In this document: piece after piece, positions 2,034 through 43,140 of the stretch
Numbering within the stretch: the stretch's first letter is position 1
Layout: each line of letters starts with the position of its first letter
IMG/VR virus record: IMGVR_UViG_2974789010_000001
Coordinates: 10,182 to 74,181 of that record
Source of the DNA: a virus
Taxonomy: Duplodnaviria; Heunggongvirae; Uroviricota; Caudoviricetes; Crassvirales
Direction: 5' to 3' (one strand)
Length of the DNA stretch: 64,000 nucleotides
Program-made: the position numbers and the translations under genes
Notes under the pieces: model-generated
The model's database searches: none
What the model was told of the DNA's origin: nothing
What the model saw: the letters and a program-made list of their open reading frames with translations, nothing else

Positions 2034-2423
2034 CTACTTTAAAAGGTTTCTATTCTTGAATTCTTCATGCAATGGATGTGCCAGTTCTCTTGCTTGAGGA
2101 TGAGCACTGCCTGCATCTCTCAACTTAAAGAAATGCTCCCAATCACTTATAAAACCAGTCATTACTAACTCTGTCTTAAGTGCATTAGGCAATACTGTTC
2201 TTGCCTGCTGGGGTGTCCAACCATGTTTAAGCAATCTAAAATATACTTCTTCTGCCTTACTTAAAGATTCATAAAAGCACCATCTATCATAAGTATCTTG
2301 ATTATCTTCTATCCAACAAGGGTGAATAAAAGTAATCTCATTACCAAATTTGTCCTTAGAATAGTTACAGTATCTTGTACTCTCTTGAGCAAAACTAAAT
2401 ACTCTATGTCTTACAAATTCCAT
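2034..2423 (-). CDS. thyX: FAD-dependent thymidylate synthase ThyX, C-terminal exon or fragment
   Basis: Contains the ThyX signature RHRvfsfaqeS (RHR-x7-S) and the downstream ARxVLPnalkTelvmTG...HFfkLR block. The ORF begins EFVRHR, directly continuing the ...DRGVSHKEFV end of ORF 3517..3981. Confidence 0.8.
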   Translation of the reverse strand: MEFVRHRVFSFAQESTRYCNYSKDKFGNEITFIHPCWIEDNQDTYDRWCFYESLSKAEEVYFRLLKHGWTPQQARTVLPNALKTELVMTGFISDWEHFFKLRDAGSAHPQARELAHPLHEEFKNRNLLK

Positions 2424-3516
2424 CTGTTATATTAAGGCTCTTTATCCTTAATTCTCCTCTTTTCAAAGGAGTATCGGACTATATCACCATCCTTTACAGG
2501 ATGCCCAGCACTCGTGTCAGTATTATATTCTATGTGTAGTATAGGAGACTCGAACTCCTGTGATAGCTAATCCTCTTCCAACATAGTAGTAGGTCTACCT
2601 ATTAATGTAGTTCGCATACAACTACCTCTTACCACATATAGTTTCAACTGTTAGTCTCTGAACCTTCCAACTTTGTTAAAGGTTGGCTCGGCTGCTGATT
2701 AGCATGATTTAGTATTTTATTACACATTTCAAATAGTTCCTCCGTTGACATATCCCCTTTCATCCAATTAACTCTCTTTGTTACCCATTGAAGATTTCCT
2801 CTAATATAACCTTTAGAAGAGTCTATTCTATCTAAAGATAAAGGTAAATCCTTCCTTACATGGTCTAAAGAACCATCTTCAGGAAGAAGATTATCTCCAG
2901 TTAAGGCACATTTGAAATCCTGTAATTCAAGTAAGTCATATAGATATTCAGGGGTTACATCTTCTGCAAATTCCTTATTTCTCAGAATTGCATTTCCTCT
3001 TAACCTATTTATAAAACTTTCTCTAAAGTTAGATACTATTTTTCCATTGGCGCATCTTCTACAACTTTGATATTTAGTTGAATCCATAATTTGTGATGCA
3101 GGCATCCATCTTTCATTCCCACATTGACATCTAACTCTATATCTAAGTTGATTATTTATGTACTCAGGTCCAGATATAACTTCCCATGTGCCAAATCTAT
3201 ATCCTAATGGGATATTTAACCTCCTATTTTTATTAGAGCATTCTTTACACATAGTAGTTCTGCCATTCTTAAGGGATGAGCATTGAACATAATACTCTTT
3301 CCCACACTCACATCTAACTTTATAGTAATAACTATTCTTAATTCTTGTCCTAGAATTTTCTATGACTGTTAATTTTCCAAATTTGTCTCCTATATTTACC
3401 ATATTCATTAAATTTTCATATGCAAATATACAACAAATTTTTCAATTACCCAAATAATAAAATACTAAATTTTAGCTTTCCAGCAATTCACTGGGTTTTC
3501 TTAACACATTACTGTA
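2424..3516 (-). mobile_element. Intron-like insertion (probably group I) interrupting thyX, carrying an HNH homing endonuclease ORF
   Basis: thyX is split after ...DRGVSHKEF-V and resumes at EFVRHR. Both junctions share GAATTTGT. About 108 nt of non-coding sequence lie 5' of the endonuclease ORF and about 220 nt lie 3'. The 3' part contains a structured tRNA-like T-loop element (GGAGTTCGAGTCTCC). Confidence 0.6.
2644..3408 (-). CDS. HNH homing endonuclease with an N-terminal Cys-rich DNA-binding region, encoded inside the thyX intron
   Basis: C-terminal block SLDRIDSSKGYIRGNLQWVTKRVNWMKG plus several CxxC pairs. Paralog of ORF 10464..11231. Confidence 0.75.
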   Translation of the reverse strand: MNMVNIGDKFGKLTVIENSRTRIKNSYYYKVRCECGKEYYVQCSSLKNGRTTMCKECSNKNRRLNIPLGYRFGTWEVISGPEYINNQLRYRVRCQCGNERWMPASQIMDSTKYQSCRRCANGKIVSNFRESFINRLRGNAILRNKEFAEDVTPEYLYDLLELQDFKCALTGDNLLPEDGSLDHVRKDLPLSLDRIDSSKGYIRGNLQWVTKRVNWMKGDMSTEELFEMCNKILNHANQQPSQPLTKLEGSETNS

Positions 3517-3981
3517 TTAAGCCACAAATTCTTTATGGGATACTCCTCTATCACATACAAAGTGAACAGTAATTCTCTTTGCATGGAACTCTGTAGGTTC
3601 ACACAGGTATTGTAGGTCATCAATCCACTCATTTTCTATAATAACTCTATAATTACTGGTTATATACCAATAGTCATTCTCACTATTATTCATTACTACA
3701 GAGTAAGGATTGTCTATATACTTTATAACTATAGGTTCATTAGAGAACTCTCCTCTATCATCCATAGTTCCATAAGGAATTTTAAGATATACAGTACCAT
3801 GCTCTAACATAGCTCCATGACCAGACTTAATCATTCTATCTACAAATCCTTTAGCAGAATCTTCTGTTATCTTGTCCTCAGACTTATAACATACTCTTCC
3901 TGCCCTTTCAATTTGTTTATAAACTCCTTCAAGACCTTCCTCTTGATTCCATATCTCAAAATCTGGTTTAATTATTTTCAT
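3517..3981 (-). CDS. thyX: ThyX N-terminal exon or fragment
   Basis: ThyX N-terminal motifs: IERAGRVCYKS, GHGAMLEHGTVY (matching GHxSvLEH), and ...CDRGVSHKEF immediately before the RHR motif that lies in the downstream exon. Confidence 0.8.
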   Translation of the reverse strand: MKIIKPDFEIWNQEEGLEGVYKQIERAGRVCYKSEDKITEDSAKGFVDRMIKSGHGAMLEHGTVYLKIPYGTMDDRGEFSNEPIVIKYIDNPYSVVMNNSENDYWYITSNYRVIIENEWIDDLQYLCEPTEFHAKRITVHFVCDRGVSHKEFVA

Positions 3982-4139
3982 ATTTTCAAATGTTATGATT
4001 TACATAGTCAGCAGTCATATTATGCTCAAATCCAAGTACTTGAATAGGGGTAAGATTAGCTACCCACTCCTCAAAGTACTTATGATATTTCTTTATGTTA
4101 GACTTGAGCTATTGGTCCTTAAGCCATAAATATAACTCA

Positions 4140-4376
4140 CTACTCATACTTCATGCACTGTTTAGCATCCATGAACCTCTCTTTAAGGTACTCTTGACCT
4201 CCCCAAGTAGTCCATTTATACCTAGCCTTAACTCTTACTCTGCCTAAGCTAACTATAACACCAAGGTTCATTGTTGTTGAACTAGTAGGTATGGCTACCT
4301 TATCTTCTAAGTGAAGCCTATTACCTCTGATGTCATACAACTCAGGCTCTCCTACTATTTTAACTTTATCTTCCAT
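4140..4376 (-). CDS. Hypothetical small protein
   Basis: 78-aa ORF. Confidence 0.4.
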   Translation of the reverse strand: MEDKVKIVGEPELYDIRGNRLHLEDKVAIPTSSTTMNLGVIVSLGRVRVKARYKWTTWGGQEYLKERFMDAKQCMKYE

Positions 4377-4533
4377 GTTTTTTTACAATTTTACAACAAT
4401 ACCACTTTGGTAGTCTTTGGACTCACTAAGGGCTTCTTCATAGGTATCAAATACCTTAGTTAAGCCAGTGTCTTCATCTACTACCAAGTTGATATTGCCA
4501 TTAAAATCTTCAATTACAACATACCTTTCCATA

Positions 4534-4784: not shown

Positions 4785-5066
4785 TTAGTTGTTATTAAAG
4801 AATTCTACATTCTGTTCTGCCATTAAACCACAACAAGGTGGAATGACAATCTCTTCTGTCTTAGTTACAAGATACTCTGATTGAGTACCATTGTACATAC
4901 CACTAGTCTTTAATATCTGCTCAGCATCATTTGCATTAGATGCCTTTACCATTGCAATACCTTTACCTACACCTCTCAAGTCATAGGTAATTACCCATAA
5001 TCTTGGTGGAAAGAATGAATCTTTCTCAGCTTCCACCATTACATTTTCAACTGATACTTCTGCCAT
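4785..5066 (-). CDS. Hypothetical protein
   Basis: 93-aa ORF tightly packed with its neighbours. Confidence 0.4.
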   Translation of the reverse strand: MAEVSVENVMVEAEKDSFFPPRLWVITYDLRGVGKGIAMVKASNANDAEQILKTSGMYNGTQSEYLVTKTEEIVIPPCCGLMAEQNVEFFNNN

Positions 5067-5067
5067 A

Positions 5068-5406
5068 TTAATATTGTCTTACATTATAACAATTATCACA
5101 TAAACCACCTTCATGTGTTGAAGGTTTACCACAATACCTACATCTTTCAACTGCATTGAACCCAAGTTCTCTACTTGATTGAGTAGAATTACTCACTACT
5201 TCTCTTATTAGTGAGAAAGCTTGTGTTAGCTTTTCCACTTCTACTGATGTTAGTATTCCAGTTCCAGAGTAATAGGGAATAGACATACCTTTCAACCTCC
5301 AAAGTATGTTATTTCTAGCTCTCCACTTCCTCTGTTTCTCAGTAGGTTGCCTATCTCTATTAGGACTAGCATTAACTGGTCCTGCATAAATCCCCTGTTG
5401 ACTCAT
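5068..5406 (-). CDS. Hypothetical protein with a C-terminal zinc ribbon
   Basis: C-terminal CRYCGKPSTHEGGLCDNCY (CxxC...CxxC). Confidence 0.45.
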   Translation of the reverse strand: MSQQGIYAGPVNASPNRDRQPTEKQRKWRARNNILWRLKGMSIPYYSGTGILTSVEVEKLTQAFSLIREVVSNSTQSSRELGFNAVERCRYCGKPSTHEGGLCDNCYNVRQY

Positions 5407-5849
5407 ACATTTTCAATTATTGATTTATACCTTTCATAAGTCTTCCTTATTACTTCTTCACCAATAGGATTCTCTCTCTTAGAGTCCCTCTCAATACACA
5501 CCTCAAGAGGTATAAAGAAATCTTTATACTCTAGTGAGTAACAATTCATATAACCAAGGGTACTATCAACTAAGTTTTCATAGTATTCTATCTCTTTTGG
5601 ATTGAAATTCATGTTATCAACAACAATATCATATCCAAATTCCATAGCACTTACTATGAAGTCTTTCTTTATATCAGATACAAGATGTTCTCTACTTGGA
5701 ACCCAGTATTTACCAAGCATGTTTCTGATGTCATCATTATTGAACCTTACTCTATGCTCTGGGTCTTCAAGTACCCATTGTTTAGCCCAAGTAGTTTTAC
5801 CTGAGCCTTGTATTCCTCTACATAAGATTATCTTACTCATAGCCTGCAT
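5403..5849 (-). CDS. P-loop NTPase or kinase (polynucleotide or nucleotide kinase-like)
   Basis: Walker A ILCRGIQGSGKTTWAKQW at the N-terminus. 148 aa. Confidence 0.55.
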   Translation of the reverse strand: MQAMSKIILCRGIQGSGKTTWAKQWVLEDPEHRVRFNNDDIRNMLGKYWVPSREHLVSDIKKDFIVSAMEFGYDIVVDNMNFNPKEIEYYENLVDSTLGYMNCYSLEYKDFFIPLEVCIERDSKRENPIGEEVIRKTYERYKSIIENV

Positions 5850-9722: not shown

Positions 9723-10259
9723 TTACTTAACACCAGTACTACCTATTCCAGTTCTGTTGTTACCATTCAATTTCTGAACCTTTACAAGTTCAATGCCTGA
9801 GCTAAAGAGCCATTTAAGCTTCTGCCACATAGTAGCTTTCTGACTTAACTGAATTCTGAATTGGCAGATTCTATCACCTTTATGAATAGTAGTATCTCTG
9901 ATAGCAATAGCAGGGAACTTCCATTCATCATCATTTCCTTGATATGAATTATCAATTACACCTTGGCTATTAGCACAGATTATACCTAGCTTACTAGGAG
10001 TGCTACTTCTTGCATCTACAATTGCTTCAAAGCCAGCAGGGAGTTGCATTGCCACTCCTAAGTTAAGTAAGTGACAATTAAAAGATACATCTCTATGACT
10101 TATCACTTCACCATCAATAGTTTCTCTCTTCCTTACACCAGCTTGAGGTGCTTTTAACACTACATCCTCTGCTGCCCTAAGGTCAATCCAGTCACCTTTC
10201 TCTATTATTTCAGGCATACAGCCTTCTGTTATTTCTCTTATCTTTATCTTCAATTTCAT
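9723..10259 (-). CDS. dut: dUTPase
   Basis: All five dUTPase motifs are present: IDARSS, GVIDNSYQG, GDRICQF, RTGIGSTG. Confidence 0.85.
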   Translation of the reverse strand: MKLKIKIREITEGCMPEIIEKGDWIDLRAAEDVVLKAPQAGVRKRETIDGEVISHRDVSFNCHLLNLGVAMQLPAGFEAIVDARSSTPSKLGIICANSQGVIDNSYQGNDDEWKFPAIAIRDTTIHKGDRICQFRIQLSQKATMWQKLKWLFSSGIELVKVQKLNGNNRTGIGSTGVK

Positions 10260-10463
10260 AATGATTCTAATAATTCCTTTTTAGTTTTGAATACCTCTTT
10301 TTCTTTAAACCTCTCCAGACCATTACCAGTTGATATGTTTGCAGAGTAATAGGTTATTTCACCTGCATATCTATCTAAAGAGTAATGTACTCCCATAATA
10401 AGTATGGGAACTGCCTTGTTATTGTGCATAACAAAGGCAGCATCTCTTATACTATATTTAGTT

Positions 10464-11231
10464 TCAATCTTTATTTTTATTATAATTAGCTACTTTAGTA
10501 CATAGTTCTATAAATTCCTCATTACTTAGAGAACCTTTCATCATATTAATCCTTTTATCTACCCATTGAATATTACCTTCTTCATAGCCTATATCAGAGT
10601 TAATTCTGTCTATAGACATATTCTGCTGCTGCATAGTAAGATTCAAATCAGGTTCTAAAGATATTCCAGATAAAGCACAAACATGCTCCTGTTCCTCATA
10701 CAATTTATTAAGATATTCCACGGATATATTAAAGGTTAATTCAGGCTTCCTACTCCTATGTCTTCTTGTAGGAAGCCCTTGTATAGTTTGATTATACTTT
10801 GATAGTATAATAGAATTAACCTTGACTATTCCAGTGTCATCTATATAAACTTTATTGCCACATCTTTTACACCTTGTAGAATTTCCAGATTGTATAACTG
10901 CTGAGTTCCTCCAAGCAAGCTCTCCACATTCACATTGAACTAACCAATATAGGTTTCTTGAATTAGAAGTAGGAGATATTTGATTCCCAGATTTAACCTC
11001 CTCAGAAACAACAGTCCATAGACCAAATTTTCTACCTATAGGTGCTTTTGGTCTTAAACTTTCTCTCCTCTTAGCAGGTCTTGTTTGCACACCTTTTATA
11101 ATAAAATATTGATGGAGTTGATTCCAACTAATTTTAAAAGTTTTACAAATCTCTGTAGTTGACATACCTTCTTGATATTTCTTATCAATTTCTAATTCAT
11201 CATACCTTCTAATTGTTTCTTCTTTTATCAT
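10464..11231 (-). CDS. HNH homing endonuclease (free-standing), paralog of 2644..3408
   Basis: MSIDRINSDIGYEEGNIQWVDKRINMMKG, Cys pairs (CECG...CKRCG) and an N-terminal HTH-like region. Confidence 0.75.
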   Translation of the reverse strand: MIKEETIRRYDELEIDKKYQEGMSTTEICKTFKISWNQLHQYFIIKGVQTRPAKRRESLRPKAPIGRKFGLWTVVSEEVKSGNQISPTSNSRNLYWLVQCECGELAWRNSAVIQSGNSTRCKRCGNKVYIDDTGIVKVNSIILSKYNQTIQGLPTRRHRSRKPELTFNISVEYLNKLYEEQEHVCALSGISLEPDLNLTMQQQNMSIDRINSDIGYEEGNIQWVDKRINMMKGSLSNEEFIELCTKVANYNKNKD

Positions 11232-11319
11232 ATCTTTTAATATTAATTATATGCAAAGATATAAATAAAAGTTGAATGTAACAAGAGCTTAAGTAATTTA
11301 CTTACACTAATGATACAAC

Positions 11320-12975
11320 CTAACTGCATCTGCTCCACCCGCAGGAAGAACAATGCACACAGCCATTCTCTCTGATTAAAACTGAACCACAATCAGGACA
11401 TACCTCACCCTTGATTTCTTCATTAGGGATATACTTAGCTAGTATTCTACACATAGCTGAACTAAATGAACTAATATTATCATTGACTTTTCTTGCAGTC
11501 TTGATAATATAGTTAATATCTACACCATGTCTCAACAACATTGAAGAGTATAGTGTAGCTGCATTCTCTTCAATATTAGTATTAGCTAACTCTAGGTTAG
11601 ATATATTAATATGTTCAGAATCAAAGCTATAGTGCATCTTACTTACCTTAGTAATAGTACCTTTATGTGCTGGAATATTAACAGGATTGAGAGGTCTGAA
11701 TGCAAACACTTCATAAGGTTTACCTTCAAGAAGCCCTACAAGAACTATAAACTGCTCTTTCTTGACTTTAACTTGATAGTAATCAGCTTCAAGAACTTTA
11801 GGTCTCTTAGGAGCTTGTCTTCCTTCAATAGTTTTAGGTTTCTCAACCTGAGTTAATACACCTTCCCTGCATCCATCTCTATAAATAGTGATACCTTTCA
11901 ATCCTTGTTTCCATGCCTCAATATAGATGTCAGCAATCTCTTCTTCTGTAGTTTCTCTATCCAGATTAACTGTACTACTGATACTGTGAGTGATATACTT
12001 TTGAACTACTCCCTGTAATTTAACTCTCTGTCTCCAATCAATCTCTGGTGCTGTAGAACCATAATAAGGACTTTCTTTCCAGACTTCCTTCCATACTCCC
12101 AAGCTCCATTCATTGACTTCTGACTCAGAATAATTGAGAGTCTCTATTGCCCATTTCTTCAAGTTAGGATGAACTACTGTAAATAAAGTGTATTTCTCAC
12201 CTACTTTATCTACATAATCTACCCTATCACTTTCAGACATACATTTCCTCTTTCTTTGATAGAAAGGCATGAATACAGGCTCAATACCACTACTTGTACC
12301 AGCCATGATACTTACAGTTCCAGTAGGAGCCACAGTGGACCAACTGATGTTTCTTCTACCAGACTGAGCCATCTTAAGCCAAGTTTTAAGATAGTTACTT
12401 CTTATAAACTTTAGCCAATCTGAATTAGATTCTGCTTCTACAACAGAATCCCAAGCAGGGAATGAACCTCTCTCAATAGCCATATCAATATTACTATCAA
12501 GCTGACCTTTGAACATAACTTTCATTAGTTGTTCAACTTGACTAATCCCTTCATCAGAGTCATACTTCAAACCTAACATAGCTATTGCATCAGCTAAGCC
12601 AGTGAAACCTAAACCAGCTCTTCTTCCTTGAATTGCAGTCTCCTTGATTTTACTCCATAACTTGAACTCAGTATCATCAGTATCATTCTTCACTGTATCA
12701 ATAATCTTATCAACAGCTTCAATCTCCAAATCAACCAAATCATCAGCCAATCTCATAGCCTCATAAGAGTGCATATAGAGTAACTCTTCATCAATGTGAG
12801 CCTTATCTGTAAATGGGTCTACAATATAACTACTCAAGTTAATATGAATCAACCTACAGCTATCAAAGGGACCCATAAAAATTTCCCCGCAGGGGTTGCT
12901 AGACACTCCTTTAAAGTTCTCATATACCCCATCTGGTGCATAATTGTGCATGGTATTCTCAAACATTATTCCCAA
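11320..12975 (-). CDS. Ribonucleotide reductase catalytic subunit, C-terminal fragment or exon (class II NrdJ-like)
   Basis: NPCGEI active-site motif near the N-terminus of this fragment. C-terminal Cys-rich zinc ribbon CPDCGSVLIRENGCVHCSSCGWSRC, of the kind found in class II RNRs. Confidence 0.75.
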   Translation of the reverse strand: MGIMFENTMHNYAPDGVYENFKGVSSNPCGEIFMGPFDSCRLIHINLSSYIVDPFTDKAHIDEELLYMHSYEAMRLADDLVDLEIEAVDKIIDTVKNDTDDTEFKLWSKIKETAIQGRRAGLGFTGLADAIAMLGLKYDSDEGISQVEQLMKVMFKGQLDSNIDMAIERGSFPAWDSVVEAESNSDWLKFIRSNYLKTWLKMAQSGRRNISWSTVAPTGTVSIMAGTSSGIEPVFMPFYQRKRKCMSESDRVDYVDKVGEKYTLFTVVHPNLKKWAIETLNYSESEVNEWSLGVWKEVWKESPYYGSTAPEIDWRQRVKLQGVVQKYITHSISSTVNLDRETTEEEIADIYIEAWKQGLKGITIYRDGCREGVLTQVEKPKTIEGRQAPKRPKVLEADYYQVKVKKEQFIVLVGLLEGKPYEVFAFRPLNPVNIPAHKGTITKVSKMHYSFDSEHINISNLELANTNIEENAATLYSSMLLRHGVDINYIIKTARKVNDNISSFSSAMCRILAKYIPNEEIKGEVCPDCGSVLIRENGCVHCSSCGWSRCS

Positions 12976-13769
12976 ATATATTCACATAAATTCGTTAGAT
13001 TTATGCAGTTCTCTAATGAACTTCTCATACTTTCATATGAGTTTAGACTATATCATAGTCCCTAAAAGGGACTCCACTTGTTTCCACCCACTTGGGTGTA
13101 CTCTACTCCTTTCCACTATAATAAATAGTGTAGTTTCGATAGTCGTTGAAAATTATTTATAACTAATGATACTACAACCCTTATACATACCTCTTTTTAT
13201 TTCTCCAGATTTTATGTAATTATACATAGAACTTTTCTTGAAATCAGTTTTGCTAAGTAACTCAGTATAACCAATAGCTCTACATAACTCATTACCTTCA
13301 CTGTCTATAATAACATAGGTATGACTTTGTTTCTTAGGGTCAAATAGACCATTTCTTATAGCATGAATGTTATTTTCAGAACCAGACACCCATTCAAGGT
13401 TAGTATAATGATTATTACTTTTGTTCCCATCCTTATGATTAACCATTAACTTGTTATCAGGATTAGGTATATAAGTCTCAGCCACTAATCTATGAACTCT
13501 TTTATAGTAAACATTTCCTTCTACATTCAACTCAATATAGACATACCCATTTTCCTTAAGAGATGTCTTTAAGAACTTTTGACCTCTTTTAGAAAATATC
13601 CTGCCATCTTCTGTTATACTATAATATTCTTCAAATCCTTTTAAATCTTTCATACTATTTTGTTTTAAATAATTCTGCTGATTGCCCAATCCTTTAGATT
13701 ATTACACTTTGGTACTAAAGGCTCTAAGGGGTTTCCAGCAATTAAAGTGGTTTATACATAGCATTACTA
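12976..13769 (-). mobile_element. Intron-like insertion in the RNR gene carrying an HNH homing endonuclease
   Basis: The endonuclease ORF is flanked by a 77-nt and a 177-nt non-coding segment. The 3' segment contains hairpins (GTCCC-TAAAA-GGGAC and others), consistent with a group I intron core. The RNR frame resumes at 12975. Confidence 0.55.
13153..13689 (-). CDS. HNH homing endonuclease (HNH_3/NUMOD-type)
   Basis: EDGRIFSKRGQ...VNHKDGNKSNNHYTNLEWVSGSEN... Confidence 0.75.
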   Translation of the reverse strand: MGNQQNYLKQNSMKDLKGFEEYYSITEDGRIFSKRGQKFLKTSLKENGYVYIELNVEGNVYYKRVHRLVAETYIPNPDNKLMVNHKDGNKSNNHYTNLEWVSGSENNIHAIRNGLFDPKKQSHTYVIIDSEGNELCRAIGYTELLSKTDFKKSSMYNYIKSGEIKRGMYKGCSIISYK

Positions 13770-14108
13770 CTATGCAGCCCAGTTTTGTTTAGGCTCTGCA
13801 GTATTCCAAGCACAGTGCATGAGAGTATCCCATAACTCCCTTGCTCTTACTTTCTTGAAGAAAGAGTTTGGATGGTCATCATCTGAGAAGAACCATAATT
13901 CATTATATGGCATCTCTTCAATCATAAGACCTTGAGGTACACTTTCATCTACGGGAAATCTAAGGATATAATCCTTATCATTCTCAACAGCTTGCATAAA
14001 TTCATCAGTAACTTTAACTGATATATTAGCTCCAGTTACCTTAGTTAAGTCCTGCTTCTTAGTAATGAACTCTTCAATGTCAGGATGATTAATACTCATA
14101 CTTAACAT
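13770..14108 (-). CDS. Ribonucleotide reductase middle fragment or exon
   Basis: INHPDIEEFITKK and ANISVKVTDEFMQAVENDKDYILRFP resemble conserved RNR blocks. Its start codon overlaps the LAGLIDADG stop (TAATG). Confidence 0.65.
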   Translation of the reverse strand: MLSMSINHPDIEEFITKKQDLTKVTGANISVKVTDEFMQAVENDKDYILRFPVDESVPQGLMIEEMPYNELWFFSDDDHPNSFFKKVRARELWDTLMHCAWNTAEPKQNWAA

Positions 14109-15046
14109 TAATGCCCCCTATTTGGACTATATCTTAACTCATTAATTGAGTCTTGGGTACTACTCTGGTTATTAAGAGTTCCATTTAACTCTCCAGTAGT
14201 CTCTGCACTTTCCACAGAAAGGTCTGTGGCACAGCTCAGTATTGTACAATTTGTATTTTCACTGAGTTCTCCCAATTCAAGACGCAGGGCATTATAATTA
14301 TCAAATTTTCTTTTTAAAGGTATAAAAGAGTCATCAGCATATAAGTAATTATAAAATTTAAGTATATCCTTCTTATTAGCAAACTCTAATACATAACAAT
14401 CTTCATTTGCTTTAGGTCTTACTATAGTAGATATCCCTATTTTATATAATACTTTTTGTACACTTGTTAAGATACCTAAGGATGAAGTAAAACTAACTTT
14501 ATGCCATATCCTATTTCTATCCTTTCTATATCCCCAAGTTATACAACCATCAGCATCAAATATCCCTCTAATCAAATAGACTTCTAAGTCTTTTTGAATA
14601 ATAGGTACATTTCTATCTTTCTTTTTATTTCCCCCTATAAATTTATTTATTCCAACTATTTTTCTGACTAATCTTATTTTTGGAAATCTTCTTTTTTCTT
14701 TTACTAAAGTTAAATCTTCAAAAGATTTTATACCAAGTAATGGTGAAAATAAATCCATAAGTTCTGAGTCATTAATAGCTACACTAATTTCAACAATTTC
14801 ATTGTTAATACTTGAATCAGCTATTATAAAACCTAACATGTATGCCAATTCCTTACTATCTATTTTAGTAAGATGATATGGTAAGTATTTAGGTTTACTA
14901 TATAGATTATTCAGATTATAATTTCTGATATATCTACTTATAGTAGTATTAGCTACTCCTAATATTAATCCAATTTCTCTTGTTGTTTTACCTTCTTTAA
15001 GAAAATTCTCTAATAGTTCTTTTGAAATATTACATACTCTATTCAT
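14108..15046 (-). CDS. LAGLIDADG homing endonuclease with an N-terminal HTH
   Basis: Two LAGLIDADG motifs: MLGFIIADSS and LIRGIFDADGC. Sits between two RNR fragments. Confidence 0.8.
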   Translation of the reverse strand: MNRVCNISKELLENFLKEGKTTREIGLILGVANTTISRYIRNYNLNNLYSKPKYLPYHLTKIDSKELAYMLGFIIADSSINNEIVEISVAINDSELMDLFSPLLGIKSFEDLTLVKEKRRFPKIRLVRKIVGINKFIGGNKKKDRNVPIIQKDLEVYLIRGIFDADGCITWGYRKDRNRIWHKVSFTSSLGILTSVQKVLYKIGISTIVRPKANEDCYVLEFANKKDILKFYNYLYADDSFIPLKRKFDNYNALRLELGELSENTNCTILSCATDLSVESAETTGELNGTLNNQSSTQDSINELRYSPNRGH

Positions 15047-15070
15047 TTTCTGTAGATATTTAATTAATTA

Positions 15071-15628
15071 TTAATTTAAGAACATTTTACGTCTTCCATT
15101 CTGAGCCACTTCATTGGTTATATCTGAACATACATCCATGAAAGATGCTGCACCAGTTGAAGATTTAGCAGCATTATTAACTCTGGCTCCTCTTGGTCTA
15201 AGTTGAGATAAGTCATAACCAACTCCACCTCTTCTCTTCATAAGTTGAGCTTGTTGACTTCTTGTCTTCATTATCTCTGCATAACTATCTTTAGGACTAC
15301 CTATTACAAAACAATTACTAAGACTTACCAATGCTCCAGTTCCACAACCAGACATAACTGAACCTCCAGGTATAATATACTTGAAGTCCTTGAATAACTG
15401 ATAGATAGCCTCTTCATCAAGTTGTGGTCTAACATAGCCATAGTTTGATAAATTACTAAAAGCCCTATCTATATTACTCTTCCAGTTATAATTACTCTCT
15501 ACTCTTGCAAATTCCTTAGCTAACCTTTTGTGTGTATCATCAGGAGTTTGTTCTCCTTCTGCTGCATACTTATTCCTCCAAGTTGAGGCTGCAAGTTCAT
15601 CACCTTTAAAATATTCTAACTCTGTCAT
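15071..15628 (-). CDS. Ribonucleotide reductase N-terminal fragment or exon
   Basis: LSNCFVIGSP and RRGGVGYDLSQLRPRGARV blocks typical of RNR catalytic subunits. Terminated by stop codons 8 codons before the LAGLIDADG start. Confidence 0.7.
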   Translation of the reverse strand: MTELEYFKGDELAASTWRNKYAAEGEQTPDDTHKRLAKEFARVESNYNWKSNIDRAFSNLSNYGYVRPQLDEEAIYQLFKDFKYIIPGGSVMSGCGTGALVSLSNCFVIGSPKDSYAEIMKTRSQQAQLMKRRGGVGYDLSQLRPRGARVNNAAKSSTGAASFMDVCSDITNEVAQNGRRKMFLN

Positions 15629-16668
15629 GCTGGCTGTAAATTATTTATTTTCATAATACCATTCCTTTCTCTAGCTTCTTTAGTGTATTTAATATCTGGT
15701 GACTGTAAGTAATAATGAAGTTCTACAAGAAGTTTCCTCCAATTTCTATATATATTACCTTTATCATCCTTCATATCAACTTCACTAAAGTTACCATAAT
15801 ACCTCCATACAAGTGGAGCTAATGTAAACCTATTAATTACTATAAAACTATAGTGTGCAATCTTAAAGTCCTTGAAGTATTCATCTTTACTAATTACTTG
15901 TTGAAGTATATATGTATAAAGCTGTGCTTGTATCATATATCTCCATGTAACAAATGATTGTTCAAAGTCTTCCTCTGCATGACCAGAAGTCTTTAAGTCA
16001 ATAGGATAAATTATCTTCTCTTGATGGTCAACTACTAACTCATCAAACATACATCTGACAGATATTCCATTAAACTCAGCTTTGAATTTTAATTGGAATT
16101 CCTTTTCAAATCTAGTATCAAATGGGTTAATCTTGAAGAATCCTTTAGTATAAGGATTAGTCTTAAGTTCATTAACACAGGCAACAGTATCATCATAGTC
16201 TTTCTGAGACAAGATTTCTTTATCTGTTGATAGTGCAAGTAACTTATAATAATCTCCACATTTGCTTCTAATATGCTTGAGTTTAGCCTCATCCCCCCAA
16301 TTAGATTGATAGGAAGGAGAGTGTGCTAATATTATCTCATCAGGTACTAAATCAAGACTTCTATAGTCATTACCATAACCATTGAATAGTTCTTTAGTTA
16401 ATGATATTAGTACCTCTGATAATGATGGAAATTCACACACCATAAATCTCTGTGTAAAAGCTGCTTCACCATCAGTTAGCATAGTGTCAACTGCACTGCC
16501 AAATCTTAATGCTGGTGATTCAATCTTATCAAAGAGACTTCCAATCTTTCTCCAACCTTCTCTATCAAACCTACTTAATGTAGAATAACTGATAGCTGGG
16601 TCTGCTCTATAAACAGATTCTGTAACTTGCCAACTTATGGACTTAATACTCTTCTGCATAATCTTCAA
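15625..16668 (-). CDS. PD-(D/E)XK nuclease (RecB/Cas4-like exonuclease)
   Basis: IDLKTSGH (D-x-K) and a QAQLYTYIL QxxxY motif. Confidence 0.55.
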   Translation of the reverse strand: MKIMQKSIKSISWQVTESVYRADPAISYSTLSRFDREGWRKIGSLFDKIESPALRFGSAVDTMLTDGEAAFTQRFMVCEFPSLSEVLISLTKELFNGYGNDYRSLDLVPDEIILAHSPSYQSNWGDEAKLKHIRSKCGDYYKLLALSTDKEILSQKDYDDTVACVNELKTNPYTKGFFKINPFDTRFEKEFQLKFKAEFNGISVRCMFDELVVDHQEKIIYPIDLKTSGHAEEDFEQSFVTWRYMIQAQLYTYILQQVISKDEYFKDFKIAHYSFIVINRFTLAPLVWRYYGNFSEVDMKDDKGNIYRNWRKLLVELHYYLQSPDIKYTKEARERNGIMKINNLQPA

Positions 16669-16939
16669 ACTCTTCTACATCATCCTGATAAGGTATTTGT
16701 AACTGTTCTACATAAACATCTACCTCTTCTTTCAGTTTGACTAATTCATCCATATCTAAACTAAGATACTCTTCCTTAGGATTATCACTATTTAAACTCT
16801 TCCTTGCCTTGATAATAGCTGAATCAACAAGTTCTTGCAATGACTCAAAATCTCTTGAATCAATAAATCTCTGTGCTAATACAATGTCACTCTTTGGTAG
16901 GCACTTGGTTAAGTTCATCATTCTCTCTACTGGTTCCAT
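16643..16939 (-). CDS. Hypothetical acidic protein
   Basis: 98-aa ORF. Confidence 0.4.
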   Translation of the reverse strand: MEPVERMMNLTKCLPKSDIVLAQRFIDSRDFESLQELVDSAIIKARKSLNSDNPKEEYLSLDMDELVKLKEEVDVYVEQLQIPYQDDVEEFEDYAEEY

Positions 16940-17372
16940 AACCTTTAATTATTTCTATAGCTTCCAACAATTGTTTCTTTGTGAATATCTCAAAGATTAA
17001 ATACTTATCTTTATCTGGCTGTTGTTCAAGCAAATGTCTGAACATCTTAAACTTGTAAGGCCAGACATCATTCTCAAAGCCTTTAGCTTCAATGATAATC
17101 TTTAATCCTTTGTACTCTATGTAGAAGTCTGGGGTGTATGTTACATCCACTAGTTTCCTAAGGTTGAGTATCTGTTGTTTAGTTTTCTCATTCCTTGTAT
17201 AGAAAGGTATAGTAGGTCTAAATCCACTCCAGATTACATAAGTAATAGGTTCATATTGAGGTTCAAATCCATGTTGAACTAGGGTATTATATACCATAAC
17301 TTCAATCTTGGACTTGAACTCAATACCATTACTTACTGTTGGAGTAGCATTTTTGACCTTCTTATTTTCCAC
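16887..17372 (-). CDS. Putative Holliday-junction resolvase (T7 endonuclease I-like PD-(D/E)XK)
   Basis: YTPDFYIEYKG...IIIEAKG resembles the T7 endonuclease I catalytic D...E-x-K arrangement. Confidence 0.45.
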   Translation of the reverse strand: MENKKVKNATPTVSNGIEFKSKIEVMVYNTLVQHGFEPQYEPITYVIWSGFRPTIPFYTRNEKTKQQILNLRKLVDVTYTPDFYIEYKGLKIIIEAKGFENDVWPYKFKMFRHLLEQQPDKDKYLIFEIFTKKQLLEAIEIIKGYGTSRENDELNQVPTKE

Positions 17373-29003: not shown

Positions 29004-30181
29004 ACTTTAATCTGATTTAAACTTTCAACAGTCTCAACCAACTCTGGGTTGTAGTCCTCAAGCATAGTCTCAAGTATCTCTTCTTCCCTTGTGTTCTTGT
29101 AGTAAGGTATAATAAGCACAGGGTTAGAATGTCTAAGAATTCTTCCCAGCTTCTGCTTAATCATAACTTCACTACTATTCAAAGAAGCATATATTCCTAC
29201 CTGACAATCTACAAGGTTCATACCTTCATTCAACATATTACATGATGTAATCTGATTGACTTCTCTCTTGTTGAACTGCTCAAGTACTTTATCTGAGTCC
29301 TTGTTATTGCTATTAATGCAGTTCTTACCTAATGTCTCTGTCTGTTCAATAGAGTTACAGAAGGTCAGGCATCTTTGCTTTCTAAGATGCACTTGAAGGT
29401 TAGACACAATAGAGGTCTTGAAGTTACTTAGCATCTTTAGCCTTAAACCAGCTAGGTATAGCCATTTGTTTTTGAATACTTCATTTCTACCTCTCATGTA
29501 TATTCTCTTCCAGTAGTCTATCTTAGCACTCAATTCATTGATGTATTCCTGCTGAGTGCAGTTAACAATAACAGTAGTATAGGACTTGTCTTTGAGATAC
29601 TTCCACTTATCTGAATAGTCACAAGTAATACTCTTACCTTTAGCTGACTTCCTTAATTCAAAAGGATATTTTCTGTCAGTATTATCTAAAGTATAAGGTA
29701 TAAGATACACTTTTGGCTCTGCTAATACTTCCTCTTGAGCTTGCTTCATAGTGATTTTGTAACAATACAAATCCTTGAAACTAGCTCTTAATGCAGCTTT
29801 CTTTGAGTCTATAACAGTCCCTGATAAGAGAGTACTATACTTGAATGTCATAGTACTAATTACATCAAGTGATTTATCAGTGAAATGATGACATTCATCT
29901 GCTATCAACATATCAAAAGATTCTCCTTCATGCTTCTTAATACCTACATAAGTACTAAATGTAACTCTCTTCAAGTACTTGTCCATCTTCCATTTAACAA
30001 ATTCATCCTTCCAATTCTGTATTAATACTAGTCTTGGTACTAAGATAAGTATGTTCTTAGGGTTCCTTTTGACCATAATGTCAAGTGCTTGTTTAGTCTT
30101 GCCAAATGATGTAACTAACTCAAGGAGTATGTTCTTAGACTTTATTGCCTGTATTTCTTTACTTGCTTCTTCTCTATTCAT
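29000..30181 (-). CDS. SF2 DEAD/DEAH-box helicase
   Basis: Motif I region ILILVPRLVL and motif II LIADECHHF (DECH). Confidence 0.7.
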   Translation of the reverse strand: MNREEASKEIQAIKSKNILLELVTSFGKTKQALDIMVKRNPKNILILVPRLVLIQNWKDEFVKWKMDKYLKRVTFSTYVGIKKHEGESFDMLIADECHHFTDKSLDVISTMTFKYSTLLSGTVIDSKKAALRASFKDLYCYKITMKQAQEEVLAEPKVYLIPYTLDNTDRKYPFELRKSAKGKSITCDYSDKWKYLKDKSYTTVIVNCTQQEYINELSAKIDYWKRIYMRGRNEVFKNKWLYLAGLRLKMLSNFKTSIVSNLQVHLRKQRCLTFCNSIEQTETLGKNCINSNNKDSDKVLEQFNKREVNQITSCNMLNEGMNLVDCQVGIYASLNSSEVMIKQKLGRILRHSNPVLIIPYYKNTREEEILETMLEDYNPELVETVESLNQIKV

Positions 30182-30719
30182 ATTGCCACTTAAATCCTCC
30201 TGCTGTTTTTAACTTACCTAAACAACAACTACTTATATTACCTTGGGGTATATTTAGAGACTTAGCTGCATCTAATCCAGTTTCCCGAATATGAAGCAAC
30301 TTTCCACTTAAATCATATTGCAAAACACATTTACCAGTAACTGCTCTAGCAGCATTAATTCTCTTTGCCTTGCTATAGTTATGATTATAATCTCTATTAC
30401 ACCATTCAAGATTATCGTAGGAATTGTTAAAAATATTTTCATCAATATGATTCACTTCTGGAAGGTTATCTGGATTAGGAATAAATGCTTGAGCTACAAG
30501 TCTATGAATTAAATAGGCGTATTCTTTATGATTCTTCCACAACCTAACCATTAAATAATCACTAGTAGAACTCTTAATAGGTTTTATTTCTCTTCCTTGA
30601 AACTTTCTAATTCTTCCATCAGAAAATGTGATAATTCTCTCTAAACTTCTAACCCTTCCAAAGTTACTTACTTGATAGCTTCCCTCCCAGTTTTTAATAT
30701 CTTTCCATACTTCTTCCAT
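30174..30719 (-). CDS. HNH homing endonuclease (NUMOD4 + HNH_3) with a C-terminal NUMOD-like DNA-binding tail
   Basis: WEGSYQVSNFGRVRS...VNHIDENIFNNSYDNLEWCN. C-terminal KTAGGFKWQYE is shared with the three GIY-YIG proteins. Confidence 0.75.
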   Translation of the reverse strand: MEEVWKDIKNWEGSYQVSNFGRVRSLERIITFSDGRIRKFQGREIKPIKSSTSDYLMVRLWKNHKEYAYLIHRLVAQAFIPNPDNLPEVNHIDENIFNNSYDNLEWCNRDYNHNYSKAKRINAARAVTGKCVLQYDLSGKLLHIRETGLDAAKSLNIPQGNISSCCLGKLKTAGGFKWQYE

Positions 30720-30721
30720 AA

Positions 30722-31192
30722 CTACGGAGGCATTAATTTAACTAAATTTCTCAGCTTATCCACATATAACTTATCCTCTGCATACTTAATCCTAAGTAGG
30801 AAATGATAGTAATCTTCACCATCCTTTTGTTTATATTCTATCATGTTCTTATATGCTAGAATACAATTAGTCCAATGGTCAAAGTTATAATACTGTCCAG
30901 CTTTACTATTATACAATCCAAAGATATTATTCTTCTCCTTACATAACCTTGATTTATAATTAGCACTCTCAAGCTTAGCTTGTGCTAATACAATCAAAGG
31001 TTCATTGATTTCATAATAGATAAGTGCCTTAAGTAAAGTACTATCACTAAGTTCTTCATTCAAGAACTCTGGTTGCTCAAGTTTTACATATGGTTGAGGC
31101 TTGTGTTCATTGGTATCATGGTCTATGTACACATAGATACCCAGACCAATCAACATAATGAACAGTAGAATATTGATTATTCGCTGTTTCAT
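30722..31192 (-). CDS. Endolysin, glucosaminidase (FlgJ-like N-acetylmuramidase/glucosaminidase) with an N-terminal signal anchor
   Basis: AQAKLESANYKS...NNIFGL matches the glucosaminidase family. N-terminal TM helix. Confidence 0.6.
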   Translation of the reverse strand: MKQRIINILLFIMLIGLGIYVYIDHDTNEHKPQPYVKLEQPEFLNEELSDSTLLKALIYYEINEPLIVLAQAKLESANYKSRLCKEKNNIFGLYNSKAGQYYNFDHWTNCILAYKNMIEYKQKDGEDYYHFLLRIKYAEDKLYVDKLRNLVKLMPP

Positions 31193-38571: not shown

Positions 38572-38683
38572 AAGCATATACTGGATTTGAACCAGTGACC
38601 TTTCTTTATTAGTACAATTACAGGAGTACTACCCAATTTACCATAGTCAATAAAGAATGCTCTAACCACTGAGCTAATATGCT
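38572..38683 (-). tRNA. tRNA gene with a roughly 39-nt hairpin insertion in the anticodon loop (anticodon unresolved; possibly TGA)
   Basis: Scaffold: acceptor AGCATAT/ATATGCT, D-arm TAGCTCAGTGGTTAGAGC, anticodon stem TTCTT/AAGAA, variable AGGTC, T-arm ACTGG-TTCAAAT-CCAGT. 46 nt lie between the anticodon stem halves, including a perfect hairpin TAGTAC...GTACTA. Confidence 0.5.
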
Positions 38684-42196: not shown

Positions 42197-42269
42197 TGCC
42201 CCATAGTATAAAGGGTTATTACATATGATTTTGGCTCATATAATGTAGGTTCAATTCCTGCTGGGGTAA
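42197..42269 (+). tRNA. tRNA-Gln (anticodon TTG)
   Basis: Acceptor TGCCCCA/TGGGGTA, anticodon arm TATGA-TTTTGGC-TCATA, T-arm GTAGG-TTCAATT-CCTGC. Confidence 0.65.
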
Positions 42270-42285
42270 CTGTTGATTAATAGAT

Positions 42286-42879
42286 ATGATAGAAAATAAT
42301 AAAGAAACTTTAGAGAGATTAATATTAGAAGAGGAAAAATCCTATGAAGAAATAGGAAGGATGTTTAATGTGTCAGGCAATGCTATAAAGAAAAGAGCAC
42401 TGAAATTTGGAATGGAATTGCCTAAAAGGAGAGTTATAAATAACTCAGAGAATTTTAATAAAGGTCTAGTTAAAGTTAATATGAATACCTGTAAGACTTG
42501 TGGGAGGGAGTACAAGTTAAGGAAGTCTAATTCTAACCATTACTGCTCTCACAAATGTCAGCAATTAGCTAGACATAAAGAGGCATACAACAAGATAAAA
42601 GTAGGAGATAGCTCAATAATGAGAGCTAATTATTCTCCCTCTTTATTCAGAGAGGATATATTAAAGGAGCAGGGAAATAAATGTGATATATGTGGTATAT
42701 CTCCTATATGGAATGAAAAGAAATTGGTATTTATAGTAGACCATATAGATGGAAATGCTTCAAACAATAGAAGAGATAACCTTAGATGTATATGTCCTAA
42801 TTGTGACTCTCAATTAGATACTTATAAGTCTAAAAATAAAAATGGAGCAAGATATTATTATAGATATAAGCAGGGATAG
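42286..42879 (+). CDS. HNH homing endonuclease
   Basis: VFIVDHIDGNASNNRRDNLRCICPNCD. Confidence 0.7.
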   Translation: MIENNKETLERLILEEEKSYEEIGRMFNVSGNAIKKRALKFGMELPKRRVINNSENFNKGLVKVNMNTCKTCGREYKLRKSNSNHYCSHKCQQLARHKEAYNKIKVGDSSIMRANYSPSLFREDILKEQGNKCDICGISPIWNEKKLVFIVDHIDGNASNNRRDNLRCICPNCDSQLDTYKSKNKNGARYYYRYKQG

Positions 42880-42953
42880 AACGTAATGGAAGCGTAATAG
42901 TCTTCTAAACTATTGTCTTTATGACCTTGTGAGTTCGAGTCTCACTCCCTGTA
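42870..42953 (+). tRNA. tRNA with anticodon loop CTTCTAA (anticodon TCT, Arg-like) and a 15-nt variable region
   Basis: Acceptor GCAGGGA/TCCCTGT, anticodon arm ATAGT-CTTCTAA-ACTAT, T-arm GTGAG-TTCGAGT-CTCAC. The 5' end overlaps the stop of the HNH ORF. Confidence 0.5.
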
Positions 42954-43059
42954 CTTGGATTTTCTATTTCATAATGTAAATGAACTACAATGGGATAAAT
43001 TGGATTTCATGTTTTTAGACCACTCTGGTCTGTGAAGATAGGAGTGGTTATTTTTTAAA

Positions 43060-43134: not shown

Positions 43135-43140
43135 CATAAT

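Follow-up and report, generated by a model that had tools for sequence, protein, structure and literature searches.

Two putative mobile group I introns, each with a homing endonuclease gene, in the class II ribonucleotide reductase gene of a crAss-like phage

A crAss-like, Kolpuevirus-like Bacteroides phage (Steigviridae, crAss001 group) encodes a B12-dependent ribonucleotide reductase (RNR) of class II, and the layout of its nrdJ gene is best explained, with a probability of about 0.9, by two mobile group I introns that interrupt the coding sequence and whose splicing and homing are both predicted here from sequence. With the same confidence, each of the two insertions is read as a group I intron that carries its own homing endonuclease gene, LAGLIDADG in intron A and HNH in intron B. 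As the interrupting elements appear to be of this type, it is almost certain that the parts of nrdJ are reunited in the RNA and that the gene is not truly broken. The window analysed is the 64,000-nt stretch at positions 10,182 to 74,181 of IMG/VR record IMGVR_UViG_2974789010_000001.

A previous sequence-only reading had described RNR motifs spread over three ORFs that are separated by one LAGLIDADG and one HNH gene, and all of these ORFs and motifs are present on the minus strand (Table 1). The spacings also hold: the LAGLIDADG stop codon TAA (14110..14108) overlaps the ATG at 14108, the N-fragment stop and the LAGLIDADG ATG are 24 nt apart, and the HNH ORF has flanks of about 80 nt and 177 nt. 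In the relative cr126_1, nrdJ is uninterrupted and has an 839-aa product. Excision of 15088..14118 (971 nt) and 13790..12973 (818 nt) from the window gene leaves a single 839-aa ORF (predicted product, 96 kDa), and this restored NrdJ is 96.5% identical to that of cr126_1 over 838 aa with 0 gaps. It also passes NCBIfam model TIGR02504 (NrdJ_Z) with 493.3 bits against a cut-off of 399.95. Alignment of the predicted proteins therefore confirms that the three ORFs are colinear parts of one class II RNR gene, as had been suggested, and maps the exact insertion points; being colinear and gapless, it argues against a set of duplicated, paralogous fragments. The exons are free of frameshifts and stop codons, and exon 1 DNA is 98% identical to cr126_1 nrdJ, with the junction directly readable. 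The first base of exon 2 lies 9 nt before the ATG from which the middle fragment had been read, and the intervening GGG GCA TTA (Gly-Ala-Leu) are reductase codons that overlap the 3' end of the LAGLIDADG ORF. The loss of these residues between fragments is only apparent, a result of starting the middle fragment at its ATG, and nothing is missing.

Table 1. Features of the nrdJ locus (window coordinates; introns, helices and junctions are predictions; slash in the guide, boundary between its P10 and P1 parts).
Feature	Position	Strand	Remarks
nrdJ N fragment ORF	15628..15071	-	motifs SNCF, GGVGYDLSQLRPRG
nrdJ middle fragment ORF	14108..13770	-	motifs HPDIEEFI, ISVKVTDEFMQAVEND
nrdJ C fragment ORF	12975..11320	-	NPCGEI and C-terminal CxxC...CxxC
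nrdJ exon 1	15628..15089	-	codons 1-180; ends ...AGA CGU, last base U
nrdJ exon 2	14117..13791	-	codons 181-289; GGG GCA UUA AUG ... GAG CCU, last base U
nrdJ exon 3	12972..11320	-	codons 290-839 and stop; starts GGA AUA AUG; NPCGE, C-terminal Cys cluster
Predicted spliced-mRNA junctions			AAUGGAAGACGU joined to GGGGCAUUAAUG; ACUGCAGAGCCU joined to GGAAUAAUGUUU
Intron A	15088..14118	-	971-nt group I intron; starts AAAAUG..., ends ...AAAUAG
LAGLIDADG homing endonuclease ORF	15046..14108	-	312 aa; between 5' splice site and guide sequence (P1 loop)
Intron A internal guide sequence	14290..14279	-	GCCCU/GCGUCUU
Intron A P10	14290..14286 with 14117..14113	-	GCCCU with exon 2 GGGGC
Intron A P1	15095..15089 with 14285..14279	-	exon 1 AAGACGU with GCGUCUU; U·G at splice site
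Intron A catalytic core	14275..14118	-	no P2, no P9
Intron A P3	14275..14271 with 14157..14153		
Intron A P4	14266..14261 with 14240..14235		
Intron A P5	14255..14252 with 14248..14245		
Intron A P6	14229..14224 with 14217..14212		
Intron A P7	14201..14197 with 14129..14125		
Intron A P7.1	14196..14193 with 14168..14165		
Intron A P7.2	14192..14187 with 14180..14175		
Intron A P8	14151..14147 with 14141..14137		
Intron B	13790..12973	-	818-nt group I intron; HNH gene in P6 loop; ends ...AUAUUUG
HNH homing endonuclease ORF	13653..13153	-	166 aa from likelier start ATG 13653
Intron B P1	13795..13791 with 13780..13776	-	exon AGCCU with guide GGGCU
Intron B P2	13774..13768 with 13763..13757		
Intron B P3	13750..13745 with 13079..13074		
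Intron B P4	13740..13735 with 13681..13676		
Intron B P6	13675..13666 with 13159..13150		
Intron B P7	13144..13139 with 13051..13046		
Intron B P7.2	13098..13093 with 13090..13085		
Intron B P8	13073..13068 with 13062..13057		
Intron B P9	13041..13036 with 13029..13024		followed by P9.1, P9.2

The two insertions have several features in common. In both, the 5' exon ends in U and the insert in G (14118 and 12973), a U·G pair in the P1 helix marks the splice site, and all helices of a full P3-P8 core could be located, including the P3/P7 pseudoknot, with P7 formed from GACUA and UAGUC elements. The exon reading frame soon meets a stop codon in each intron, after six codons in intron A (UAA, 15073..15071) and after seven in intron B (UAG, 13772..13770). 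Searches with the Rfam group I model RF00028 (gathering score 50 bits) gave matches below the cut-off: a scan of 7 kb at E<=1 returned no match, and neither intron attains 50 bits in one hit. Narrow searches gave significant matches: the core of intron A scored 35.6 bits (E=7e-8; 14323..14117, whole model covered), and the halves of intron B, which are split by its ORF, scored 24.3 bits (5') and 27.9 bits (3'), all still under the 50-bit cut-off. Identity to cr126_1 falls only beside both introns and beside a third endonuclease gene, and exon divergence confined to endonuclease flanks is what co-conversion would give. The synonymous differences from cr126_1 (CGU and CCU) are those needed by P1.

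Intron A is compact because its guide and a ribozyme of about 175 nt sit within the 3' end of the endonuclease gene; the LAGLIDADG ORF runs through the entire ribozyme, the guide, the 3' splice site and 10 nt of exon 2. Its core contains GCAGAGACUAC and AAGAUAUAGUCC, within which P7 falls and which we take to be the R and S consensus elements typical of group I introns. The encoded protein matches Pfam LAGLIDADG_3 (44.3 bits; cut-off 22.5) and, over residues 7-252, PHROG 4645, with the tail (253-312) outside both profiles. It has two motifs ending in acidic residues, LAYMLGFIIADSS and YLIRGIFDADGC, and by these signatures is a homing endonuclease with predicted cleavage activity. Lacking P2 and P9, and with a P1 loop of about 800 nt, intron A may need help in folding from a maturase or host factors, and translation of the ORF through the ribozyme core could disturb folding.

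Seven IMG/VR contigs, 84 to 368 kb in length, have a related LAGLIDADG gene at the GRR/GA site of nrdJ (slash, insertion point). The intron in one of them (L007) is almost identical to intron A (970/971 nt); the other six phage contigs hold diverged versions at the same site, with the splice site one codon upstream in the 368-kb contig (L013). Covariation was assessed across the window and these six diverged contigs (7 loci), with helices assigned by hand in each sequence. All ten helices form in the 7 loci, with standard pairs in 361 of the 364 cells, and under this hand assignment compensatory double changes occur in 29 of the 52 pair columns. P1 is conserved; in P10, the guide changes along with the 3' exon (five variants across the 7 loci). 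Furthermore, six of the 7 loci retain the P9-less architecture while showing compensatory changes, which argues for selection on the RNA. The guide sequence also codes for a C-terminal motif, LRLEL (as in ALRLELGE), common to 6/7 family members. It is conceivable, although we think it rather doubtful, that intron A belongs to a lineage of minimal group I introns not described before. Such a lineage would combine a ribozyme of about 175 nt without P2 and usually without P9, a LAGLIDADG gene in the P1 loop and an LRLEL-coding guide, and would be specialised on the GRR/GA site in the class II RNR genes of gut phages ranging from crAss-like to jumbo. In this reading, with the stop of the endonuclease ORF falling within exon 2 in the window genome, the complete enzyme could come only from unspliced RNA; if true, this would tie endonuclease expression to delayed splicing.

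The HNH insertion had already been suspected to be a group I intron, and the sub-threshold RF00028 matches, the helices and relatives found by blastn all bear this out. The flanks of intron B match phage group I introns, among them one in Clostridium phage D-1873 that is annotated as a group I intron. Direct sequence relatives of its RNA are found in Bacillus phages AR9, PBS1 and Internexus, Acinetobacter phage YMC13/03/R2096 and Clostridium phages c-st and D-1873, with 82-85% identity over 96-124 nt of the 5' or 3' flank and covarying helices. On RF00028 the AR9 intron scores 76.6 bits and that of YMC13/03/R2096 78.8 bits (both 84-85% identical to intron B in the 5' flank), and the Internexus intron used in the helix comparison scores 104.4 bits; these relatives (76-104 bits) have no ORF inside the matched stretch. 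Unlike intron B, they lie in other genes (RNA polymerase, near terminase) of unrelated phages, and only the ribozyme scaffold is common. In L003-L006 and L014, helices P2, P3, P7.2, P8, P9 and P9.2 differ in sequence with pairing kept; the L014 intron lies at the same AEP/G site of an NrdJ that is 33% identical, and its HNH gene is 53% identical. We found no convincing P10 between intron B and its 3' exon. The HNH ORF, which is also open from an upstream TTG (13689..13153), has its stop codon within the 3' strand of P6. Its product matches Pfam HNH_3 (39.5 bits; cut-off 24.8), NUMOD4 (36.3 bits; cut-off 23.4) and PHROG 59 (E=4e-42), and with this HNH_3 and NUMOD4 combination is, by profile, an I-HmuI-like homing endonuclease.

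In the proposed mechanism, nrdJ would be transcribed as one pre-mRNA in which each intron folds as a ribozyme and excises itself. Intron A would be guided by GCCCU/GCGUCUU, pairing with both exon ends, and intron B by GGGCU. Free guanosine would attack after the exon U of the U·G pair, as is standard for group I introns; the terminal intron G would then dock and the exons be ligated, giving the mRNA for the 839-aa NrdJ. During mixed infection, the endonuclease may cut or nick an intron-less nrdJ allele at the same conserved site, and repair would copy in the intron together with some flanking exon sequence.

For the LAGLIDADG insertion, the sequence-only reading had hesitated between an unusually tight intron and genuine gene splitting; the ribozyme inside the ORF and its covariation decide in favour of the former. 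Were nrdJ truly split, three separately translated products of 185, about 110 and about 550 aa would have to assemble into an active reductase. None of the fragments lacks an open frame or a potential start codon, and the functional split RNR of Aeromonas phage Aeh1 (nrdA/mobE; PMC3045599) is a precedent that looks alike at the ORF level, with RNR fragments parted by a homing endonuclease gene. However, the Aeh1 insertion has no ribozyme and its fragments are separately translated, whereas both insertions here hold complete, covarying putative ribozymes with guides that match the exon ends. In addition, the middle fragment read from its ATG would be without the upstream Gly-Ala-Leu codons, and the unspliced ends of the N fragment (...RRKMFLN) and middle fragment (...AEPKQNWAA), from KMFLN and KQNWAA to the stop, are intron read-through and not conserved interaction tails. 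We regard a working split reductase as most unlikely.

It is also highly improbable that one or both introns have decayed and no longer splice, leaving nrdJ a pseudogene in a phage that uses host deoxynucleotides. The Rfam scores under threshold, the absence of P9 and P2 from intron A and the loss of RNR in some crAss-like phages (Yutin et al., PMC7886860) would fit such decay, but all core helices and both endonuclease ORFs are intact, the uninterrupted exon frames still encode a protein 96.5% identical to an intact homologue, and selection on the RNA is implied by the P9-less family described above. The probability that the insertions are inteins, spliced out of the protein, or group II introns is negligible. 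LAGLIDADG endonucleases are common in RNR inteins, yet the frames are interrupted by stop codons on either side of each insertion and the Pfam matches found for the LAGLIDADG protein include no intein (Hint) family, so that inteins are ruled out by sequence, as had been argued before. Group II introns fare no better: no reverse-transcriptase family is among the Pfam matches, the sole hit to a group II model is a weak, chance-level one in another phage, and features of group I introns are positively present.

Group I introns with endonucleases in phage RNR genes are a familiar kind of element, of which the nrdJ pair is a further case. In the td, nrdB and nrdD (sunY) introns of phage T4, the endonuclease gene is looped out of the ribozyme. 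Intron B presumably resembles these in layout, with P7.1/P7.2 between P7 and P3', P9.1/P9.2 extensions, an endonuclease ORF closed by the P6 stem and an early stop in the exon frame; it differs from them in endonuclease family, host gene and phage lineage. Group I introns are also known from nrdE of Staphylococcus phage Twort (Landthaler et al., 2002, as cited in PMC3653736). Twort nrdE and bnrdE/bnrdF of Bacillus prophage SPbeta are alike in having several self-splicing introns in one RNR large-subunit gene, at highly conserved codons and at least one with an HNH homing endonuclease. However, those are class Ib nrdE genes of phages with Gram-positive hosts, whereas here the gene is a class II nrdJ of a crAss-like Bacteroides phage, and one intron carries a LAGLIDADG enzyme. 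Phage introns mostly encode GIY-YIG, HNH, PD-(D/E)xK or EDxHD enzymes (reviewed in PMC3984707).

Among crAss-like phages, group I introns and inteins have been described in the Delta and Zeta groups (Yutin et al., 2021; PMC7886860), which are distinct from the Steigviridae of the window phage. In the literature consulted on crAss-like phages we found no description of introns in Steigviridae, and the paper on the crAssBcn isolates (PMC10354031) nowhere mentions introns. In Jug jumbo phages, 37 of the 76 predicted introns were confirmed as spliced by metatranscriptomes (PMC12880540). Like the window phage, the Delta and Zeta groups and the Jug phages are gut Bacteroides phages with core genes fragmented by endonuclease-bearing group I introns, and beside the Jug phages we note the intron A family member on the 368-kb contig.

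The ribonucleotide reductase gene of the window had been described in the sequence-only reading as three fragments separated by two endonuclease ORFs, and the minus-strand ORF list shows all five ORFs in this arrangement. The window belongs to a crAss-like phage; in megablast it is 97% identical to cr126_1, an uncultured phage (Kolpuevirus hominis, Steigviridae), and 82-90% identical to crAss001 and the cultured phages related to it. The B12-dependent ribonucleotide reductase gene (nrdJ) of cr126_1 is a single uninterrupted ORF of 839 codons. By aligning the window to cr126_1, and by following the reading frames by eye, we were able to place the junctions of the LAGLIDADG-bearing insertion (A) and the HNH-bearing insertion (B). 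U is the last base of each upstream exon, and G that of each insertion. The predicted spliced junctions are ...AATGGAAGACGT to GGGGCATTAATG... (exon 1/exon 2) and ...ACTGCAGAGCCT to GGAATAATGTTT... (exon 2/exon 3), and the intron-less sites in cr126_1 are GGAAGAAGA/GGTGCTCTT (A) and GCTGAACCA/GGGATTATG (B).

Parts of the interrupted nrdJ gene in the window
Feature	Position	Strand	Length	Basis
N-terminal RNR fragment	15628..15071	minus		ORF list
312-aa ORF	15046..14108	minus		ORF list; Pfam LAGLIDADG_3
Middle RNR fragment	14108..13770	minus		ORF list
178-aa ORF	13689..13153	minus		ORF list; Pfam HNH_3 + NUMOD4 when read from ATG at 13653
Large C-terminal RNR fragment	12975..11320	minus		ORF list
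nrdJ exon 1	15628..15089	minus		cr126_1 alignment
nrdJ exon 2	14117..13791	minus		cr126_1 alignment
nrdJ exon 3	12972..11320	minus		cr126_1 alignment
Insertion A	15088..14118	minus	971 nt	
Insertion B	13790..12973	minus	818 nt	

Alignment to an uninterrupted NrdJ, the comparison proposed in the sequence-only reading, confirms that the fragments are parts of one reductase: the joined exons encode 839 amino acids, 96.5% identical to cr126_1 over 838 residues with no gaps, and this product scores 493 bits on the NCBIfam NrdJ_Z equivalog model, above its cut-off of 400. No reductase codons have been lost. BLAST ends suggested a 12-nt loss (Arg-Gly-Ala-Leu) at junction A, but the reading frame rules this out: the Arg codon (CGU) is the end of exon 1, and Gly-Ala-Leu is present directly upstream of the middle-fragment ATG, synonymously diverged (GGG GCA UUA vs GGU GCU CUU in cr126_1) and overlapping the end of the LAGLIDADG ORF. 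Across most of nrdJ the DNA is 98-100% identical to cr126_1, but identity is lower near junction A (85-93%), near junction B (65-80%) and at the 3' end (53-80%), which adjoins a third endonuclease gene; co-conversion during homing would be expected to leave such a pattern. At the junctions, the exons differ synonymously from cr126_1 in having CGU for AGA and CCU for CCA, and these are the changes that helix P1 of the introns proposed below requires.

Insertion B is, on the evidence of its relatives and predicted fold, a group I intron, with which its flanks had already seemed compatible, and has its HNH gene in the P6 loop. In blastn searches, its non-coding flanks match phage group I introns: intron positions 20-117 are 84-85% identical to introns of Bacillus phages AR9 and PBS1 and Acinetobacter phage YMC13/03/R2096, and an intron of Clostridium phage D-1873 annotated 'Group I catalytic intron' shares 82% identity with positions 691-814. 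The Rfam group I model RF00028 (gathering score 50 bits) gives 76.6 bits for the AR9 intron, 78.8 for the Acinetobacter phage intron and 104.4 for one from Bacillus phage Internexus. Intron B matches in two halves because the ORF splits the match, with 24.3 bits for model positions 1-143 and 27.9 bits for 128-253, both below the gathering score. The helices identified are P1, in which AGCCU pairs with GGGCU and a U·G pair marks the splice site; P2, capped by a GUAA loop; and P3, P4, P6, P7, P7.2, P8, P9, P9.1 and P9.2. P6 (10 bp) closes off the ORF and holds its stop codon, and P2, P3, P7.2, P8 and P9 are altered in relatives with pairing kept. Our first strand choices for P5/P5a/P5b contained mismatches and were dropped. 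A distant IMG/VR locus (L014; NrdJ 33% identical) has an intron at the identical AEP/G site, with an HNH gene 53% identical and a compensatory change in P9.2.

Insertion A is a group I intron too. The full RF00028 model aligns to its last 207 nt (14323..14117) with 35.6 bits (E=7e-8, below the gathering score of 50), and this stretch contains GCAGAGACUAC and AAGAUAUAGUCC, which we take to be the classic R and S consensus elements of group I introns. Comparison across the intron A family identified the guide sequence, GCCCU followed by GCGUCUU, at 14290..14279. Its 3' part pairs with the exon 1 end AAGACGU, with U·G at the splice site, and its 5' part pairs with the exon 2 start GGGGC (P10); this P10 strand co-varies with the 3' exon, with five versions across loci. 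A local hairpin after the 5' splice site (AAGACGU/..GUUCUU), together with an AT-rich 'P2' closing the ORF, was also considered as P1. It was dropped because the family keeps GCGUCUU about 800 nt downstream, adjacent to the covarying P10 strand; the local GUUCUU is not conserved in four members (L008 and L011-L013). All seven family sequences compared can fold P1, P10, P3, P4, P5, P6, P7, P7.1, P7.2 and P8. With helices assigned by hand in each of the seven and pairs counted by script, 361 of 364 cells are standard and 29 of 52 columns have compensatory double changes, positional homology being approximate in hairpins of variable length. A MAFFT alignment was not used for these counts, as variable loops and the 3' end were misaligned. 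There is no P2, and a small P9 occurs in one relative only (L011).

The P1 loop of intron A, which extends from the 5' splice site to the guide sequence, houses the endonuclease gene, whose frame runs on across the guide. P10-P1-P3 thereby encodes a motif, LRLEL (ALRLELGE in the window), common to six of the seven family members. In the window and in L007, the frame spans the whole core and then 10 nt of exon 2; in the other relatives the stop comes earlier, at varying points. The Pfam and PHROG profile matches of the window protein do not include residues 253-312, and G+C is 24.8% in the ORF body and 39.2% in the core. Thus, the compactness of insertion A is explained by a group I ribozyme with its guide sequence inside the endonuclease frame.

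With the LAGLIDADG protein as query, seven loci were found in IMG/VR. One (L007) has a near-identical intron A (970/971 nt) and is without intron B; the other six, on contigs of 84 to 368 kb, encode LAGLIDADG proteins 42-73% identical. All seven share the nrdJ insertion point, GRR/GAL, with the splice site of L013 one codon upstream. Blastn with intron A against 50,697 GenBank phage records gave no match, and tblastn with its protein found only distant LAGLIDADG genes (25-28% identity). Further interruptions make nrdJ a hotspot for such elements: in L011 (about 4290..4467) and L012 (about 4240..4417) the NP/C-G-E site holds a second element that has an R-like motif, and L009 has an endonuclease ORF (4787..5479) within the C-terminal half.

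An Rfam scan of 10000..17000 (7 kb) at E<=1 found no group I intron. Narrow scans (160-380 nt) found RF00028 in three introns, including A and B (160-230 nt); in the covariance-model check suggested from the sequence alone, both nrdJ insertions thus give matches with scores below the curated threshold. Since the short searches recover both introns, the broad-scan miss is a problem of sensitivity, and ORF-bearing, AT-rich phage introns are easily missed in this way.

The structural facts are directly established, and from them we infer splicing and homing. Most likely, nrdJ is transcribed as one RNA, from which each ribozyme would remove itself in the two guanosine-initiated steps usual for such introns, leaving a ligated mRNA for full-length NrdJ. 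The exon reading frame meets a stop 6-7 codons into each intron, which would prevent ribosomes from entering the ribozyme. Mobility would come from the two endonucleases, through cleavage of nrdJ alleles that lack the introns in co-infecting phages. Both insertion sites are in highly conserved parts of the reductase, and homing sites are usually in such regions.

For insertion A, the sequence-only reading had left the choice between an unusually tight intron and genuine gene splitting. Aeh1 nrdA is a precedent for a split gene (PMC3045599), but the production of three polypeptides from nrdJ is an unneeded assumption that conflicts with intact, covarying ribozymes; we consider it extremely improbable, and the RF00028 match and covarying helices favour the tight intron. 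Scarcely more credible is that splicing has been lost and nrdJ is a pseudogene, given intact helices, intact exons and an architecture conserved across diverged relatives. Inteins, already dismissed because of the stop codons, and group II introns are excluded by those stops and because no protein domain of either kind appears among the Pfam matches. Self-splicing group I introns are therefore our preferred reading of both insertions.

Phage RNR genes are a classic location of group I introns. Among the nucleotide-metabolism genes of phages, they are reported to be the ones that introns interrupt most often, as in T4, Twort and SPbeta, among others (PMC3653736), and endonuclease ORFs can overlap intron core sequences (PMC3984707). 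Phage intron enzymes are mostly GIY-YIG, HNH, PD-(D/E)xK or EDxHD (PMC3984707), so the LAGLIDADG enzyme of intron A is the less usual case. Dense introns and inteins have been described in the crAss-like Delta and Zeta groups (PMC7886860) and in Jug jumbo phages, where metatranscriptomes confirmed splicing (PMC12880540). For the crAss001 family we found no published description of introns, and the paper on 25 crAssBcn isolates never mentions them (PMC10354031). In the cultured crAss001-like phages PhiCrAssBcn14, 15, 16 and 18, nrdJ is split near the NPCGE active site. PhiCrAssBcn14 (OQ221549) has an nrdJ group I intron at 3016..4190 (RF00028, 31.2 bits) with a LAGLIDADG_2 ORF annotated 'DNA polymerase III subunit gamma/tau', and its nrdJ halves are annotated as separate RNR genes. 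This intron differs from intron A in site and ORF; its 312-aa ORF is unrelated to the window protein despite equal length.

Although knowledge of introns or RNR is unchanged and the finding is unsurprising, it is useful for annotation. Automated pipelines would report this nrdJ as three fragments or a pseudogene, and the gamma/tau label on a similar intron ORF recurs across PhiCrAssBcn14-18. Intron A is a worked example of a compact endonuclease insertion that hides a ribozyme in a protein-coding frame and is missed by a broad Rfam scan. The Steigviridae (the crAss001 family) contain group I introns that look active, as well as several homing endonuclease genes that are free-standing, and crAss phages are among the most abundant human gut phages. 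As cr126_1 provides a nearly identical intron-less genome and close relatives can be cultivated on Bacteroides, a phage pair could serve for the study of intron homing and marker exclusion.

Compared with the 97%-identical cr126_1, the window genome is unusually rich in homing-endonuclease-like elements. At 10464..11231 (minus), 88 nt downstream of the nrdJ stop, is a free-standing 255-aa endonuclease gene absent from cr126_1, whose product matches PHROG endonuclease, endonuclease VII and HNH families, with no Pfam match; the last ~70 nt of nrdJ beside it are those with 53-80% identity, as if co-converted. An insert at 2421..3534 (minus) ends in G after an exon U, matches RF00028 at 2759..2454 (28.4 bits, E=2e-5) and carries a 265-aa ORF (3441..2644) with no significant Pfam match, whose C-terminus (NLQWVTKRVNWMKG...FEMC) resembles, by eye, that of the 10464..11231 ORF. 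Other insertions relative to cr126_1 are a NUMOD4+HNH_3 gene at 30174..30737 (minus), between HKD nuclease and hydrolase genes; a GIY-YIG+NUMOD gene at 53222..53953 (plus), between terminase and portal genes; and a homing-endonuclease-like gene with NUMOD motifs at 56336..56980 (plus), at the end of the portal gene. A 544-nt insertion (3983..4526) between thyX and a hicA-like gene has an 80-aa ORF (4382..4140) with no Pfam match. Finally, the window has an array of 20 tRNA genes (42197..46914, plus strand), and a 112-nt Rfam tRNA match (38572..38683, minus; 52 bits), not called by ARAGORN, may be interrupted or contain an intron.
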